A stretch of 64,000 nt of DNA from Candidatus Omnitrophota bacterium (GTDB lineage: Bacteria > Omnitrophota > Omnitrophia > Omnitrophales > Aquincolibacteriaceae): the NCBI GenBank assembly GCA_022709525.1, contig JAKLIQ010000001.1, forward strand, positions 146,679 to 210,678. The letters are read 5' to 3'. The notes beneath the pieces are model-generated. The model saw only the letters and a program-made list of their open reading frames with translations, was not told the DNA's origin and made no database searches. A program made the position numbers and the translations under genes. Within the stretch, counting starts at the first letter, position 1. Every line of letters starts with the position of its first letter. Below are positions 2,798-63,422 of this stretch, one piece after another.

Positions 2798-3484
2798 ATG
2801 ACTGTGTACGAATACACGATGGGAAAAGAAATGGATCTGAAAGCGGAGCAGGAACGGACGCTTGCGACGCCGAAGCTTCCGGCGAATTTGATCCTGCGCT
2901 TCATGTTCTGGCAAATCGACGCGCTTTACGGAAAAGCGATGTCGCTTCCGAAGGCGATCGTACTCGAGATCCTGGCGCGTTATCCCTATTGGGCTTGGGA
3001 GAACGGCGCCTACCATTATTTGTCAAAGCTCTACAGCGGCACGGGAAAAGTTTCCCAGGAAAAAGTCGAGACGGCGCTCCGCCATATCCAGATGGGCCGC
3101 GAATCGCAGGATAACGAACAGTGGCATATGCTTCTTTGGGCGGATCTTTGCCATCAAAAGGGGATCAAACTCGGGAAGATCCGGCATTTCCTGCTGCCGA
3201 AAGCGATGACGCTCGTTTATTTCTGCATCACGCGCGTGATGTACTGGCTTAATCCCGTCTGGTCTTTCGCGATGAACGCCGCGTTCGAGTCGCACGCCGA
3301 ACATGAATACATGTTTTACGCGAAGGAGCATCCGGAATTTGAGAACGAACCGGCGGATTCGGTATGGTTCAAATATTATCCGAAGCAAAAGTCCTTAGCG
3401 GACCTCATCCGTCGCGTGGGATTGGACGAACGGGATCATATGAATCATTCGCTCGAAGAGGTCGAACGTCTTCAGCGTTCCTGA
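2798..3484 (+). CDS. alternative-oxidase-like diiron carboxylate protein (AOX/PTOX family)
   Basis: Four motifs track the AOX motifs LET(V)A / NERMHL / LEEEA / RADEAHH. They are LEILARYPYW, NEQWHMLLW, FESHAEHEY and ERDHMNH. 228 aa. Confidence 0.55.
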   Translation: MTVYEYTMGKEMDLKAEQERTLATPKLPANLILRFMFWQIDALYGKAMSLPKAIVLEILARYPYWAWENGAYHYLSKLYSGTGKVSQEKVETALRHIQMGRESQDNEQWHMLLWADLCHQKGIKLGKIRHFLLPKAMTLVYFCITRVMYWLNPVWSFAMNAAFESHAEHEYMFYAKEHPEFENEPADSVWFKYYPKQKSLADLIRRVGLDERDHMNHSLEEVERLQRS

Positions 3485-4629
3485 TCGGTATAAGCGCGCG
3501 AGTCCGGGATGGAAAGATCAAGTTCCGGGAAGCGGCGCGCGATGCTTTCGTGAAATAAATAATCCAGTCCTGCGTTATTTTCAGGCGCAAAGCCCATCAC
3601 ATCCCGCCACACGGTTTTATTTTCCATACAAAAATAGATAAAAACATCCCTCCATTTTTTCCGCAGGGCTTCATAAATATGCCGGTAGAGCTTGACCCGC
3701 CCGGGGCGGAAATAGCGCATCTTGCCGTCAAGCCCGCGGACGAATTCAGCTGTCGCAATGCCGGTTTTCGGGAAACGTTCCTCGATCACTTTTTTCAAGG
3801 GCGGCGGGAAACGCAAACTCCCGAGACTGATCCACATCACTTCGTTTTCAGGGACAGTCCTTGTTAATTTTTCGATCAAGGCCGCGTATTTTTCCTTCCA
3901 TCCCGGAAGCAGAAGCAGGGGATCGAAATGAAAGCCGAGCCGATAACCTTTTTTGACGGCCGCCGCCGCGGTTTCGAGACGTTTTGCAAGCGGAGCGCTT
4001 TTAAATTCCTGGGTCCGGATGAATTCCTCCGGATTAAGCGACCAGGAAACGACGATATTCTTTTTCGGGACCTTGGGAAGATGGCGGATCAAGTCCGTTT
4101 TAGTTTTGATCTCGAGGATCATCTTTCGTTTAAGAGCCGTGCGGATCAGATCCCGGTTAAAATGCGTCAACGGGTCAAGCGCGAGACTGTCGGTAAGCTC
4201 CCCGGTTCCCATGCGGAAGAGGCGCCCGGGCTGGTTCGCAAGAAGCGCGTCGATCTCATGCGGGATATTTTCGGTATTCACATAAATCGTGATCAGCGGC
4301 ACATTCAAATAATTTTGCAGGATGCAGTAAGTGCAATCGAGCGGGCAATGAGTTTGGACATTGAGCGTCCAGTAGCGGCAGCAAAGATAATCCGTTCCCG
4401 TGGCGGGGCATGGCTTGAGGAATCCGCTCTTGAAGCGCGTCAGCCAGAGGCTTTTTTTTCCGGAAGCGAGCGGCATTTGTCCGGCGCCGCGAAGGAAAGC
4501 GCCTTTGCTTTTTACGATCGTGACGGGAACGCCTTTCAGGGCTCGCAGGATCCGGCGCGTCAGCGGCGCGTTCCGGGCCGTCTGATCGAGGAAAATATGT
4601 TCAATGCCAAAGTTTTTTTGCCGTGTCAT
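3472..4629 (-). CDS. spore-photoproduct-lyase family radical SAM protein (SplB-like DNA repair lyase)
   Basis: 385 aa with a CPLDCTYC motif (Cx3Cx2C) and overall similarity to SplB-type radical SAM DNA photoproduct lyases. Confidence 0.7.
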   Translation of the reverse strand: MTRQKNFGIEHIFLDQTARNAPLTRRILRALKGVPVTIVKSKGAFLRGAGQMPLASGKKSLWLTRFKSGFLKPCPATGTDYLCCRYWTLNVQTHCPLDCTYCILQNYLNVPLITIYVNTENIPHEIDALLANQPGRLFRMGTGELTDSLALDPLTHFNRDLIRTALKRKMILEIKTKTDLIRHLPKVPKKNIVVSWSLNPEEFIRTQEFKSAPLAKRLETAAAAVKKGYRLGFHFDPLLLLPGWKEKYAALIEKLTRTVPENEVMWISLGSLRFPPPLKKVIEERFPKTGIATAEFVRGLDGKMRYFRPGRVKLYRHIYEALRKKWRDVFIYFCMENKTVWRDVMGFAPENNAGLDYLFHESIARRFPELDLSIPDSRAYTDQER

Positions 4630-4700
4630 GGCCTCATGCTAGCGGCTTCATAAGGCCTTGAGAAGAGAAAAATCTTGGAGTGCATCCCGTCTTAGACTGG

Positions 4701-5004
4701 CATCCAAAAGGCTTCGGGCTTGAGCCCTCGGCAACACTTCGGGAATCCCCGGCGAGGATTCCCTCGTTCGGGTCTCACTTCTCGCTCCCTACTCTGTAGG
4801 TCCATGCCCCCTCGTCGTTCGAACGTGCCTTGGGCTCAACCCTCCGCCTTTTGTTCAGAAGAGTGAAGACGGAAAGTGTGTTTAAGCGACGTAAGGAGGC
4901 CAGAGCGCCAAGGTTTTTTGCGAGGCCGACGCTCCGAGTGCAGCCACGGCTCGGTGGGCCGTGGCAAACGTTCGCAAAAACACACTTTCCGGCGGAACGA
5001 AGGA
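4701..5004 (+). repeat. ~300-nt structured repeat element, copy 1 (candidate ncRNA or hairpin-ended non-autonomous element)
   Basis: About 85 % identical to 23173-23472 in the same orientation. Differences are compensatory in predicted stems. The ORFs predicted inside it look spurious. Confidence 0.6.
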
Positions 5005-5064
5005 TTGGTGCACGAAAGAGGATGCGTCAAAAATCTTGGTAAACCGGGACGGGGACGCTATATA

Positions 5065-5520
5065 ATGAAAGACATTATGAAGATACGGTTTTCACTTGCC
5101 TGGGCCGAGGGGTCCAAGGCGCTTGATAAAAACTTCAAATCGCGGACGATCTGCTCGCTTTTTAAGGAATATCTCGAAAGGATCGCCAAATTCATGCCCT
5201 GCGAAGGCGGCGCCTATCTTCCTAAAGAACGGTCCTGCGTTTGGGTCTGTGAAAGGGAAAAAGGCAGCCGCACCATGAATTCGGAGGATCTGGCGCGCGC
5301 GTTCCAGCAATGCATGAATTCGGGTGTTCAGGAGCTTCAGGTCGTGATCGGGGGCGCGGACGGATTTACGGCAGGAGAACTTGAAAAAATGAATCCCGCG
5401 TTGCGGTGGAGTTTTGGCCCGATGACGCTGCCTCATGAATTAGCCTCGGTCGTGGCAGCCGAACAGATCTACCGGGCTCTCACCATCATCCACCATCAGC
5501 CCTACCACTCGGGGCATTAG
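5065..5520 (+). CDS. rlmH: 23S rRNA (pseudouridine1915-N3)-methyltransferase RlmH
   Basis: 151 aa from the ATG at 5065. SPOUT-family RlmH similarity throughout (QVVIGGADGFTAGELEKMNPALRWSFGPMTLPHELASVVAAEQIYRALTI). Confidence 0.8.
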   Translation: MKDIMKIRFSLAWAEGSKALDKNFKSRTICSLFKEYLERIAKFMPCEGGAYLPKERSCVWVCEREKGSRTMNSEDLARAFQQCMNSGVQELQVVIGGADGFTAGELEKMNPALRWSFGPMTLPHELASVVAAEQIYRALTIIHHQPYHSGH

Positions 5521-9649: not shown

Positions 9650-9731
9650 GCGGTCGTGGCGAAATTGGCAGACGCGCAAGACTTAGGATCTTGTCCCGAA
9701 AGGGGTGGGGGTTCAAGTCCCTCCGACCGCA
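9650..9731 (+). tRNA. tRNA-Leu (TAG)
   Basis: Type II tRNA with a long variable arm (GTCCCGAAAGGGGT). Anticodon stem CAAGA/TCTTG and loop CTTAGGA. Confidence 0.9.
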
Positions 9732-9796
9732 CTTGTTCCTAATGAACAAGTACGGCACCGTGAGAGCTTAAGGATAGCTCTCTACGGTGACCGCAC
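9731..9796 (+). repeat. conserved double-hairpin tRNA trailer element, copy A
   Basis: acttgttc-CTAAT-gaacaagt is a perfect 8-bp stem. It is followed by a second hairpin gagagc-ttaaggata-gctctc flanked by acggcaccgt/tacggtgaccgca. A homologous unit follows tRNA-Gly. Confidence 0.55.
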
Positions 9797-10072: not shown

Positions 10073-10146
10073 GCGAGTGTAGCATAGTGGTAATGCTCTG
10101 CCTTGCCAAGGCAGCTACGAGGGTTCGATTCCCTCCACTCGCTCCA
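10073..10146 (+). tRNA. tRNA-Gly (GCC)
   Basis: GCGAGTGTAGCATAGTGGTAATGCTCTGCCTTGCCAAGGCAGCTACGAGGGTTCGATTCCCTCCACTCGCTCCA. Anticodon loop TTGCCAA. The 3' CCA is encoded. Confidence 0.9.
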
Positions 10147-10211
10147 CTTGTTCTTTATGAACAAGTACGGCACCGTCGAAGCATAAGGACAGCTTCGTAC
10201 GGTGACCGCAT
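10146..10211 (+). repeat. conserved double-hairpin tRNA trailer element, copy B
   Basis: acttgttc-TTTAT-gaacaagt followed by cgaagc-ataaggaca-gcttcg. The second stem differs from copy A by compensatory changes (gagagc/gctctc versus cgaagc/gcttcg). Confidence 0.55.
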
Positions 10212-19101: not shown

Positions 19102-20225
19102 ATTCTTTAATCTCTCTTTTACCGGCATTAATTGTTTTTGGCATTCTGATCATTGTTCATGAGTTCGGCCATTTTATCGCCTGCCGTCTGTCGAAAGTCC
19201 GCGTTGAAAAATTCTCGATCGGGTTCGGGCCGGAGCTTTTCCATTGGCAATCCAAGGAGACGCGCTTTTCAATCTCGATCTTTCCGCTCGGAGGTTTCGT
19301 GACTCCCGCAGGCGAAGAGGCCTCCAAAGTCAGTCCCGAAGGCCCGAAGCCAGGCGATTTTTTGGCGGCGCCGGTGCTTTCGAGGATCTTTATCGTGGTC
19401 TCCGGCGTGATCATGAATTATGTGCTCGCATTTCTGGTGTTCTGGACTGTTTTTATGATCGGCCGGCCGATGCCCGGCGCCGTGGTCGGAGGTTTCGTCA
19501 AAGGTTATCCGGCTGAGGCAAGCCGTTTAAAGGCCGGCGACAAGATCCTCATCGTGAACGATCAAGCCGTGACGCATTGGATGGATATATTAAAGGGTTT
19601 CGATGAAACGTCCGGGGCCGTGATCGATCTGACTGTCGAAAGACCGCGCGGGAACGCAAAACCCGAAATTCTTAAAATTCAGATCAAGCCCAAGATCGAA
19701 ACCATGCGGGATCCTTTCGGTAAAGTTGCCGAGGTAAAACGGGTCGGGATCACGCCGGATCCCAAAGTTTTCGTCAAAGAGCGTTACGATATCCTGCCCG
19801 CGCTAAAAAAAGCATGGGATCTTGAAGTTTCCTACACCGTTCTGACGCATAAAGCGCTTTTTTATCTGGTAACGGGGCAGTTGTCGCCTAAGAACCTCAT
19901 GGGGCCTCTCGGCATCATCCAGATGAGCGGCCAGGCCGCGCAGGCGGGGATCGTCGTCTTGTTGCAGCTCTTGGCGATCTTAAGCGTCTCGCTTGCGGTC
20001 ATCAATCTTTTGCCGTTCCCGGCGCTGGACGGAGGCCATCTTGTTTTTCTTTTGATCGAGCTTATTACCCGAAGACGCATTAGTCCTGTTTTGCAGGAAA
20101 GGATTACCACGGGCGGCTTCATTCTCCTCATGGCGCTCATGGTTTTCGTGATCTATAATGATGCCGTGAATCTTTCGATCCTCGACAAACTGAAAAACCT
20201 GTTTCATTTTAATGTAAGACCCTAG
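19098..20225 (+). CDS. rseP: RIP zinc metalloprotease (site-2 protease)
   Basis: HEFGHF motif in TM1, a PDZ-like middle region and a C-terminal LDGG motif. ATG at 19098. Conserved position after dxr. Confidence 0.8.
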   Translation: MNSLISLLPALIVFGILIIVHEFGHFIACRLSKVRVEKFSIGFGPELFHWQSKETRFSISIFPLGGFVTPAGEEASKVSPEGPKPGDFLAAPVLSRIFIVVSGVIMNYVLAFLVFWTVFMIGRPMPGAVVGGFVKGYPAEASRLKAGDKILIVNDQAVTHWMDILKGFDETSGAVIDLTVERPRGNAKPEILKIQIKPKIETMRDPFGKVAEVKRVGITPDPKVFVKERYDILPALKKAWDLEVSYTVLTHKALFYLVTGQLSPKNLMGPLGIIQMSGQAAQAGIVVLLQLLAILSVSLAVINLLPFPALDGGHLVFLLIELITRRRISPVLQERITTGGFILLMALMVFVIYNDAVNLSILDKLKNLFHFNVRP

Positions 20226-20227
20226 TT

Positions 20228-20265
20228 CACACCCGGTGTGTACACCAGTGTACACACCGGGTGTG
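20228..20265. repeat. perfect 38-nt palindromic element (RPE/REP-like), intergenic copy
   Basis: cacacccggtgtgtacac-ca-gtgtacacaccgggtgtg has perfect 18-bp arms. It lies exactly between the rseP stop and the proS start. The same unit recurs at 63151-63194 inside a kinase ORF. Confidence 0.7.
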
Positions 20266-20287
20266 GAGGTGGGTGGAGAGGGAAAAC

Positions 20288-23150: not shown

Positions 23151-23172
23151 GGTCCATCCCACCTCATACAAT

Positions 23173-23472
23173 CATCCAAAAGGCTCCGGGCTCGAGCCCT
23201 CGTCAACACTTCGGGAATCCCCGGCGTGGATTCCCTCGTTCGGTCTCACTCCTCGCTCCCTGCTACGCAGGACCATGCCCGCTCGTCGTTCGAACGCGCC
23301 TTAGGCTCAACCCTCCGCCTTTTGTTTGAGCGTAGTCGGGAGTGTGTGTTAAACGGCGTAAGGAGGCCCGAGCGCCACGGTTTTCCAGCGAGGGCCGACG
23401 CTCCGAGTGTCGCCATGCCACGGTGGGACATGGCAAACGCCCGTGAAACACACACTCCCCGACGGAACGATA
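23173..23472 (+). repeat. ~300-nt structured repeat element, copy 2
   Basis: Homologous to 4701-5004 in the same orientation. Lies between dinB and leuC. Internal ORFs look spurious. Confidence 0.6.
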
Positions 23473-23554
23473 GATCTATAGAAAATTACTGCCCGAATGG
23501 AATGTGCTCCAGTAGACTTTTGAACTTTTCGAATCCGTTCGAACTCGCTATACT

Positions 23555-61968: not shown

Positions 61969-63422
61969 ACCCCTATAATTTTTCTGTTCTCTGCTTTGGA
62001 TTTTGTTCCCTTCTTTTAGGGTTTTTTGTGTGGTGGAAGCGGCAAGACAGGATCGGAAAATTATATTTCATATTGTCCTTATGTTATGCGGGCTGGGCCT
62101 TACCGTTTTCCATTAAAATAAGCGATAACATTTCCTACTATGCGGCGCTTCATGCGGCCAGGATCGCAAATTGCGCCGCAGCATTTATTCCCGCTGCCTG
62201 GTTCCATTTTTGCGTGGTTTATACCGAAAAAGAAAAAATTCTGCATAAACTGATCCGGATCTTTTATCTCATACCTTTTCTCATCCTCGCTGTTTCTTAT
62301 ACGCCCTGGTTTGTACCAAGCCTAAGGCCGATCCTTAGCTTTAGACATTATGCGACACCCGGCATTTTTTATTATCTGATGACGTTTAATTATTTCTTGA
62401 TCACTCCTCTGGGTTTTTGGCTTCTGGTAAGAAGAATCAGAGAAGTATCGGGGAACGAAAAAGGGCAGATCCTGGGGCTTTTTTGGGCGGCTTTCGCCGG
62501 CTATTTAGGAGGAGCGACGACTTTTTTGCCGATCTACGGAATAGCGTTTCCTCAAGAGGGTATGTTCCTTCTTCCGCTCTATCCCTTCGCGCTGGCTTAT
62601 TTCATGACCAAGCAAAAACTTTTTGATGTCGAGGAGTTCGCCCAAGCGGCGCACCGGGACAAGCTCACGGCGATCGGGGTCCTGGCGGCCAGTATCAATC
62701 ATGAGGTCAAAAACCCCTTATTCATTATCAAAGGCCTTGCGGAAAGCTGCCTGGAGCGTCAGAGAGAAGGAGTTTTTCCGACCAAAGAAAAAGCCCTTGA
62801 TGGCGCCAATGAAGCGTTCAAACGGACCATGGAACAGGCCGATCGGGCCATGGATATTATTAAGCGCCTGTCACTTTTTGCGAAAGCGGGGATCGAAAGC
62901 GAGATCAAACTCGAACCGGTTAAAGTTTCGGCGGTTTTAGAAGACATCCTTCCGCTCCTCCGCTATGAGCTTGCCGCTCATGGCATTACCCTTATCCGGG
63001 ACCTCCCTCCCAACCTCCCCGAAGTCCAGGCCGACCGGAGATACCTTGAAGAGATCTTTTTTAATTTGATCTTCAACGCCTGTCAGGCGTTAAAAGACGC
63101 AAACAAACCAGGCGAGATCATTATTAGGGCAGTCGCGAGCAACGCACCCCGTACACACCCGGTGTGTACATTGGTGGACACACCGGGTGTGTACAAGGGT
63201 TCGGTCGTTATTGAAATCTCTGACAACGGCCCAGGGATCCCGGGAGATAAGCTTAAAGACGTCTTCCGTCCTTTCTATACCACCAAAGCCGAAGGCACCG
63301 GTCTGGGCCTCTACATCACCCAGCAGCTGGTCGAAAAGATCAAAGGACGTATTTCCGTTAGTTCCGAGGCCGGTAAAAATACAACCTTTACAGTTTCGCT
63401 TCCTTCGAGCCCCAAGACATGA
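61965..63422 (+). CDS. sensor histidine kinase paralog 2 (7TM sensor, HisKA, HATPase_c) carrying an in-frame palindromic element
   Basis: ATGA overlap with the upstream kinase. H-box (INHEVKNPLFII), N-box (IFNACQA), G1 (DNGPGI) and G2 (GTGLGLYI). The palindromic repeat at 63151-63194 encodes RTHPVCTLVDTPGVY in the ATP-lid region. The 5' part is AT-rich. Confidence 0.8.
   Translation: MNPYNFSVLCFGFCSLLLGFFVWWKRQDRIGKLYFILSLCYAGWALPFSIKISDNISYYAALHAARIANCAAAFIPAAWFHFCVVYTEKEKILHKLIRIFYLIPFLILAVSYTPWFVPSLRPILSFRHYATPGIFYYLMTFNYFLITPLGFWLLVRRIREVSGNEKGQILGLFWAAFAGYLGGATTFLPIYGIAFPQEGMFLLPLYPFALAYFMTKQKLFDVEEFAQAAHRDKLTAIGVLAASINHEVKNPLFIIKGLAESCLERQREGVFPTKEKALDGANEAFKRTMEQADRAMDIIKRLSLFAKAGIESEIKLEPVKVSAVLEDILPLLRYELAAHGITLIRDLPPNLPEVQADRRYLEEIFFNLIFNACQALKDANKPGEIIIRAVASNAPRTHPVCTLVDTPGVYKGSVVIEISDNGPGIPGDKLKDVFRPFYTTKAEGTGLGLYITQQLVEKIKGRISVSSEAGKNTTFTVSLPSSPKT
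63151..63194. repeat. palindromic element (RPE-like), intragenic in-frame copy
   Basis: gtacacacccggtgtgtaca-ttggtg-gacacaccgggtgtgtac. It shares the 17-nt core cacacccggtgtgtaca and its reverse complement with the intergenic copy at 20228-20265. Confidence 0.65.

Follow-up and report, generated by a model that had tools for sequence, protein, structure and literature searches.

The bcr1 and other group A repeats of the Bacillus cereus group are small non-coding interspersed elements of 100–400 bp, whose distribution differs between close strains (PMC3184786, PMC6542083). The bcr1 element is bounded by short flanking direct repeats, contains two predicted independent stem-loop domains with compensatory changes, and is transcribed, and the mechanism of its mobilisation is unsolved (PMC3184786, PMC6542083); one proposal for bcr repeats is a process resembling recombination and linked to a short repeated motif (PMC6542083). 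Here we describe an element of about 350 nt, present in two copies in a 64-kb window (the whole stretch of DNA that was analysed) of a Candidatus Omnitrophota metagenome-assembled genome (MAG) of anaerobic digester origin. In kind, although not as a sequence family, it most resembles bcr1 and the group A repeats among the described systems, being small, non-coding, variable between strains, accompanied by flanking direct repeats, and predicted to fold into two stem-loop domains kept by compensation. It differs from bcr1 in the absence of any sequence relation and its occurrence in another phylum, in the length of the flanking repeat (11 nt versus the 5-nt TTTAT of bcr1), in size and architecture (350 nt with multi-branch domains versus about 155 nt), and in the number of copies (2 in the window versus 11–130 per genome); moreover, transcription was shown for bcr1, while that of the Omnitrophota element is putative.

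A comparison can also be made with the bacterial MITEs (miniature inverted-repeat transposable elements), such as Correia/NEMIS, ERIC, and RUP, with which the element shares the non-autonomous character, location in spacers, target duplication, and a stable RNA fold. Classical MITEs fold by pairing of their long terminal inverted repeats, which are their best-conserved part. In contrast, the ends of the Omnitrophota element do not pair mutually and are the least conserved, and it is the internal fold that is kept by covariation. Among the features by which MITEs are recognised, the target-site duplication (at copy 1), the small size, the lack of coding capacity, and presence or absence at the same site in relatives were found, while terminal inverted repeats of a parent insertion sequence, and the parent insertion sequence itself, were not. 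The element is a structured MITE-like or bcr-like repeat, matching no described RNA family.

The two copies were revealed by blastn as direct repeats at positions 4680–5000 and 23152–23470 with 82.8% identity over 325 nt (E 4e-87) and are also aligned by MAFFT; a sensitive self-search of the window yielded no third copy. A preliminary description of this DNA had given an end-to-end identity of about 85% in the same orientation, and the repeat and its orientation were borne out at the slightly different blastn value. The extent proposed there for copy 1 (4701–5004) falls within its true limits, which are slightly wider and enclose 350 nt at 4679–5028. Copy 1 sits between the divergent promoters of a SPL-family radical SAM gene (3472–4629, minus strand) and rlmH, while copy 2 (23151–23473) starts one base past the stop codon of dinB (23150) and ends about 80 nt before leuC, in agreement with the flanking genes named earlier. 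Clear homology of copy 2 to copy 1 stops near 23473, and its degenerate right end may reach about 23509. Both copies are tentatively assigned to the minus strand, which folds slightly better. The GC content of the element (58–62%) exceeds that of the window (51.5%) and of other spacers (41–47%). The internal open reading frames (ORFs), already suspected to be spurious, have no frame common to both copies, with indels shifting the frame between blocks, and a concatenated six-frame pseudo-protein of both copies had no relative among 5.8 billion predicted proteins. Therefore, the element is non-coding, and a small protein gene was rejected as its identity.

The insertion that gave copy 1 was precise, adding 350 nt and duplicating an 11-bp target. 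Copy 1 is bounded by a perfect 11-nt direct repeat, AAAAATCTTGG, at 4668–4678 and 5029–5039, and the TTGG of the right-hand repeat belongs to the -35 box of the rlmH promoter. A related MAG contig (L029), whose SPL protein is 81% identical, has an empty site with AAAAATCTTGG present once, and the window minus positions 4679–5039 is collinear with this site through the rlmH promoter and start codon. A relative at 78% SPL identity (P0123 contigs) has no more than 108 nt between SPL and rlmH. At the copy 1 junction of a strain with 97% SPL identity (L028), the element is not found, and the contig stops 53 nt beyond this junction, in unrelated sequence. These terminal nucleotides (L028 1–53, reverse complement), located past AAAAATCTTAA, resemble neither the element nor the empty site, and this spot may hold a further insert or repeat.

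The copy 2 site is likewise empty in related genomes, and its occupancy follows DinB identity to the window. The same DinB protein (100% identity; L001–L005) is present, for example, on JGI contig Ga0116241_10000025 and in NCBI GCA_035389965.1, and its homologues are labelled Omnitrophota or Omnitrophica by their sources. The site is filled, with a dinB–leuC spacer of 405 nt, at 100% and at 94% (L017) DinB identity; at 89% (L030), it is taken by a different element related to the first of the two domains described below; at 87%, it is empty, with spacers of 122 nt (L018) and 117 nt (P0004 contigs). At 86% and 75% identity (L013 and L015, respectively), a tetratricopeptide repeat (TPR) gene lies in the spacer without the element, and at 79% (L014) other genes follow downstream, also without it. 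The preliminary description had named a non-autonomous mobile element as part of the third of its candidate identities, and the empty sites in relatives support this mobile behaviour. Copy 1 retains a complete duplication and is absent from the junction in the 97% strain, yet shows only 83% identity to copy 2; it therefore cannot derive recently from copy 2, and at least one further source lineage probably exists or existed.

The same two-domain architecture was predicted for both strands of both copies, with energies 2.5–3.8 standard deviations below those of dinucleotide shuffles. Each domain is closed independently, D1 being a multi-branch domain and D2 a long stem with a three-way junction. 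In copy 1, D1 (4705–4853, minus strand) is closed by the helices P1 (CAAAAGGC/GCCTTTTG) and P2 (GGGCTTGAGCCC/GGGCTCAACCC) and carries hairpins H3, H4, and H5 with conserved junctions, while D2 (4871–4990, minus strand) is closed by the 13-bp stem S1 (GGAAAGTGTGTTT/AAACACACTTTCC) and includes the inner stems S2–S4. S1 is a GU-repeat stem and is register-shifted. The corresponding domains of copy 2 are located at 23177–23324 (D1, defined by the folds, the helix table, and a covariance model) and 23338–23459 (D2, defined by the folds and the helix table), both on the minus strand.

The helix set, written out in structural register, comprises nine helices with 74 pairs. Of the 16 pairs that are not the same in copies 1 and 2, 13 have substitutions on both sides without loss of pairing, and two more have a substitution on one side, also without loss of pairing. 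In 20,000 simulations with the same number of substitutions placed randomly on the helix positions, neither the observed pairing nor the number of double changes was matched once, and the outcome did not change when the register-shifted closing stem of D2 was left out. Compensation is thus far beyond chance, and the earlier claim of covariation proved correct and, if anything, understated. The helices are kept by compensatory substitutions between the two copies, and for D1 this also holds in the far more diverged relative from another MAG (L030, below).

Among the individual stems, CCTAC/GTAGG is replaced by CCTGC/GCAGG in copy 2 and the long-range pairing GGAAAGTGTGTTT/AAACACACTTTCC by GGGAGTGTGTGTT/AACACACACTCCC, while the hairpin GGGAATCC/GGATTCCC is identical in both copies, all as described previously. 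Two more compensated pairs were found in GCGACGT/ACGTTCGC versus ACGGCGT/ACGCCCGT. For the change of GCCACGGC/GCCGTGGC to GCCATGCC/GACATGGC, only one of the two pairs proposed to covary is compensated, the other being C·A on the plus strand and U·G on the minus strand, and GGGCTTGAGCCC, previously regarded as a hairpin of its own, is likelier to pair with its long-range partner GGGCTCAACCC than with itself. D2 also holds TAAGGAGG on the plus strand (CCTCCTTA on the minus strand); its role as a functional ribosome-binding site was rejected, since no start codon follows it and it is altered in L017.

The orthologue of copy 2 in the latter strain (L017 2292–2647) has 13 differences from copy 2, 12 of them in the apical half of D2, where a tandem G·A/A·G is replaced by G-C/C-G, hairpin S3 is destroyed, and AAGGAGG becomes AAGTACA. 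These clustered changes reflect either real decay or an assembly artefact. A variable region of the diversity-generating retroelement type was considered for them and rejected, as the changes are not adenine-specific.

The copies share 91% identity in D1 and 80% in D2, compared to 53–65% in the termini and the linker; therefore, selection would rest on the folded core and not on the ends. The left terminus (4679–4704; 65% identity between copies) consists of AGT, GCATCC (4682–4687), and a 12-nt spacer followed by a second GCATCC (4700–4705), while the right terminus (4991–5028) contains GGATTG (5002–5007), a 12-nt spacer, GGATGC (5020–5025), and GTC. Hexamer pairs of the GCATCC type are thus present at both ends in inverted orientation (4682–4705 and 5002–5025) with two mismatches, the outer hexamer being 3 nt from the terminus. 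Within the window, the hexamer-pair pattern is no more frequent than expected by chance; the chance of its mirrored placement at the other end was estimated at about 4e-4 (3.8e-5 per position at about ten positions). An inverted repeat, AGGATGCAGGATAACGAA/TTCGTTATCCATCCT, found in the 'empty' dinB–leuC spacer of L018 (2324–2395), holds GGATGC and CATCC hexamers as in the element termini, in reversed order, which may be due to chance or to a terminator.

The dinB–leuC spacer of L030 (GCA_000315315.2) harbours a different, very stable element of about 290 nt, for which the fold z-score is about -6.7 whichever strand is folded. Read on the minus strand, this element and D1 have the following features in common and in matching order: a hairpin with GAGCGGGCATGG after it, a variable hairpin, GAGCGAGG with AGTGAG, and a hairpin with the loop ACGCCGG. 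The variable hairpin, H4, comprises 5 bp in the window copies versus a 143-nt palindrome in L030. H3 has an identical 7-nt loop, ACGCCGG, on a stem that is TTTTTCC/GGAAAAA in L030 versus GGGAATCC/GGATTCCC in the window copies, and RNAalifold identified four H3 pairs changed on both sides in L030. The closing stem P1 is wholly replaced in L030 and still pairs. Local alignment of D1 of copy 2 with L030 gave a score of 20 versus 9.6 ± 1.5 for shuffled sequences, above all 300 of them, and a covariance model built from three sequences, L030 itself among them, assigned it 99.9 bits. Over 165 kb of related Omnitrophota DNA, the D1 covariance model detected only the four known instances. L030 has no D2, and the tail of copy 1, with D2 removed, is roughly collinear with the L030 tail (TTCAGAA ... 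GGATTGG). The shared motifs, covaried stems, and the collinear tail without D2 therefore indicate that D1 is a module conserved well beyond the window copies, D2 being either an add-on or a loss. Further strong hairpins, CCCCAACT...AGTTGGGG and CCGTCCAAGTC...GACTTGGACGG, are located in the same spacer downstream of the D1-type element (L030 2745–2870), a region matched weakly by the Rfam family JA01 (26 bits, E 0.036), well short of the threshold. The dinB–leuC spacer seems to collect structured inserts.

All five non-Watson–Crick transition pairs in the nine helices are of the G·U type on the minus strand and A·C on the plus strand; one of them is in copy 1 and four are in copy 2. The fold energies of the two copies are -132.2 and -141.6 kcal/mol on the minus strand versus -129.1 and -126.8 kcal/mol on the plus strand, i.e., the minus strand is better by 3 and 15 kcal/mol. 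Both the transition pairs and the energies weakly favour the minus strand as the folding strand. A promoter-like site of copy 1, TTGACG-18-AATCCT, lies on the minus strand and spans the junction with the duplication, while that of copy 2, TTTTTA-17-TACAAT, lies on the plus strand and ends 4 nt before P1.

The SPL gene, rlmH, and leuC each have a -10-like box 6–12 nt before ATG (TAGCATGAGGCCATG, TATATAATGAAAGACATTATG, and TATACTATGGCCCTTATG, respectively), located at 4636–4664 (minus strand), 5037–5066, and 23526–23554; the conserved start of rlmH is probably at 5077. This arrangement suggests that the mRNAs of these genes are leaderless or have very short leaders in the host. Therefore, the element would be located upstream of their promoters and outside their transcripts, and the idea that it serves the SPL gene, leuC, or rlmH as a 5' leader was rejected.

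A search of the whole window against Rfam 15 at gathering thresholds revealed 5 tRNAs and nothing else. The two copies corresponded to no known RNA family, either at gathering thresholds or with the cut-off relaxed to E 10, in line with the preliminary description, which could not match the element to RNase P, tmRNA, 6S, or SRP RNA. Under the relaxed cut-off, the copies and L030 gave weak matches attributable to chance, of which the best reached 16 bits where the threshold is 35. The possibility of a group II intron fragment was rejected, since neither Intron_gpII nor group-II-D1D4 was matched at E up to 10. Two exact 19-mers, both picked without the L030 sequence, were used as probes: GCTCAACCCTCCGCCTTTT had two chance matches only in GTDB representative genomes, and CAACACTTCGGGAATCCCC had nine chance matches, in coding DNA, among JGI metagenome contigs, a set that apparently lacks the source contig. 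Of four DNA-pattern scans of IMG/VR viral contigs, three were empty and one gave chance matches in a single virus; a scan of viral contigs with a back-translated pseudo-protein, using two poor seeds, gave nothing, and blastn against PLSDB plasmids and GenBank phages gave no match. A literature search found no paper on mobile elements or non-coding RNAs of Omnitrophota.

Taking these data together, we favour, with a probability of roughly 0.55, the explanation that the two copies represent a mobile element of about 350 nt that is lineage-restricted, has no coding capacity, and does not move autonomously, its single-strand fold being under selection. Its occurrence is restricted to a narrow Omnitrophota lineage. 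Insertion would be performed by an enzyme supplied in trans and making an 11-bp staggered cut, most likely a DDE-type transposase reading the terminal hexamers. An enzyme of the DDE type is the simplest source of such a duplication, and IS4-family enzymes give duplications of 9–13 bp. The folded core would act in single-stranded form, most likely as RNA read from the minus strand, and would be the selected part, either for the propagation of the element itself or for a function after insertion.

Several observations weigh against this explanation. Real terminal inverted repeats are lacking: 13 of 27 terminal positions match, essentially those of the hexamers, and the best inverted repeat is GCATCC with a few additional bases. 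Conservation is lowest at the termini, an unusual feature for a MITE mobilised by a transposase. No transposase, integrase, or reverse transcriptase domain was detected in the window ORFs of at least 150 aa, and the analysis revealed no autonomous relative. From the host genome, of which the 64-kb window was examined, just two copies are known, and a target duplication is not recognisable at copy 2 or at the L030 element. In L017, the 12 clustered changes in D2 break one hairpin. As to the role of a minus-strand RNA, the strand preference derives from four independent positions (one-sided p of about 0.06), the tandem G·A/A·G in one D2 helix on the plus strand becomes a weaker U·C/C·U on the minus strand, and scans of both copies found neither a promoter-like site common to them, on either strand, nor a common terminator.

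A rival explanation is a resident family of small-RNA genes, in which D1 would be an old structured RNA of this Omnitrophota clade housed in the dinB–leuC spacer, copy 1 a rare duplicate inserted where a staggered break had occurred, and the relatives without the element would have lost it. In its favour, conservation of the core far exceeds that of the ends, no more than two copies were seen, D1 motifs are retained at the left junction (TTTTTTAGG|) in L030, where other spacer sequence is no longer alignable, and the plus-strand promoter-like site of copy 2 is placed just before P1. However, copy 1 is a clean insertion with an 11-nt duplication at a site that is empty at 81% and 78% SPL identity, and it is not at the junction in the 97% strain; its 83% identity to copy 2 excludes a recent derivation and implies at least one further source copy, and the two copies have neither a promoter nor a terminator in common. 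We therefore regard this scenario as unlikely. Movement by a site-specific recombinase, through a circular or excised form with AAAAATCTTGG as the crossover core, would turn the flanking repeat into an att-like core instead of a duplication. It would agree with the absence of long terminal inverted repeats, with the AATCTT found in L030 at the corresponding distance from GGATTGG, and with a near copy of the 11-mer (10 of 11 positions) inside the element at 4908–4918; the empty site already holds AAAAATCTTAG, which is compatible with either reading, and a similar mechanism was proposed for the Bacillus cereus bcr repeats (PMC6542083). Nevertheless, copy 2 and L030 have no matching core on either flank, no recombinase gene is located nearby, and the internal match, with a chance expectation of about 0.02, was noticed after the fact, so that this mechanism appears distinctly doubtful.

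The same internal near copy is the loop AAAAACCTTGG of the S4 hairpin of D2 (minus strand, 4908–4918), where D2 varies most from one copy to the other, and this loop is identical at 10 of 11 positions to the target of copy 1 itself, about 0.02 such matches being expected in the element. Since no equivalent match of the D2 loop to the flanks exists at copy 2, this similarity is treated as a lead only. It touches on a bolder proposal, that D1 and D2 constitute a new class of mobile elements for which the folded RNA is needed for movement, either by recopying of a retro-mobilised RNA at a staggered break with target-primed duplication, as in eukaryotic short interspersed nuclear elements (SINEs), or as a guide (bridge-type) RNA with a variable loop that would direct a trans-supplied recombinase to its target. 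With SINEs such as Alu, the element shares the length of about 300 nt, two folded domains, a target duplication in the range of about 7–20 nt, the absence of terminal inverted repeats, and a fold conserved among active lineages. SINEs, however, need the reverse transcriptase of a long interspersed nuclear element (LINE) and an internal polymerase III promoter. The seek, or bridge, RNAs of IS110/IS1111 elements are similar in being two-domain non-coding RNAs of elements without terminal inverted repeats, and one loop of the Omnitrophota element resembles its target. IS110/IS1111 elements are known to carry a DEDD recombinase gene, and the core that they duplicate is not known to exceed 2 nt. 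In contrast, no recombinase gene was found in the window and the duplication is 11 nt long, and an IS110-type bridge-RNA element is not supported on these grounds. Movement through RNA would combine a target duplication without terminal inverted repeats, two separately folded domains, and selection on the fold across diverged active lineages, and the duplication starts with A5 at the plus-strand 3' end. However, nothing in the element shows an RNA intermediate, neither a reverse transcriptase nor a DEDD recombinase is encoded in the window, the copy 2 loop, by inspection, has no match to its flanks in the same geometry, and no shared promoter was found; we know of no bacterial system of the SINE kind, or of IS110-type bridge-RNA elements making 11-bp duplications. 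RNA-dependent movement is accordingly rated as quite improbable; if true, it would explain why the fold is kept in diverged active lineages while the termini drift.

The preliminary description had also proposed structured ends of an element mobilised by IS200/IS605 enzymes or by REP-associated tyrosine transposases (RAYTs), i.e., hairpin-bearing remains of a palindrome-associated or repetitive extragenic palindromic (REP) type element that is recognised as single-stranded DNA. The numerous stable hairpins and the weak bias towards one strand, with possible recognition of a single strand, are in keeping with such systems. IS200/IS605 and REP/RAYT systems are not known to leave a target duplication and rely on subterminal hairpins. 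Because the Omnitrophota element has an 11-nt target duplication and its conserved hairpins are internal, this proposal was not upheld; in addition, no TnpA, TnpB, or RAYT gene was found in the window, and 350 nt with two multi-branch domains is unlike REPs of 20–40 nt. It is thus considered very unlikely.

The non-autonomous mobile element with a selected fold would be of interest for several reasons. Omnitrophota are uncultured, and a precise insertion with the empty site at hand provides a clean example. Evolution appears to preserve the internal fold rather than the ends, a pattern described mainly for bcr1 among the known bacterial repeats. If the fold is necessary for mobility, an undescribed route of transposition could be supposed, and if the element is an expressed RNA, it would represent a new RNA family carried along by a mobile backbone. 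In both cases, Omnitrophota genomes can readily be probed with the D1 covariance model.

Other repeats were observed in the same DNA. A 66-nt direct repeat (85% identity) is located at 9730–9795 and 10145–10210, directly 3' of two tRNA genes; it contains two hairpins, the inner of which covaries (GAGAGCT/AGCTCTC versus CGAAGC/GCTTCG), and makes a second small structured repeat family. In L017, an extra gene (4164–4508) coding for a 114-aa protein of PF05635 (23S rRNA intervening-sequence protein, Avd-like) is located between leuC and leuD, where the window has none. Finally, two spacers of the window, at 20219–20272 and 63147–63200, each contain a near-perfect, REP-like palindrome about 54 nt long (CACACCCGGTGTGTACAC...GTGTACACACCGGGTGTG), with 82–87% identity.

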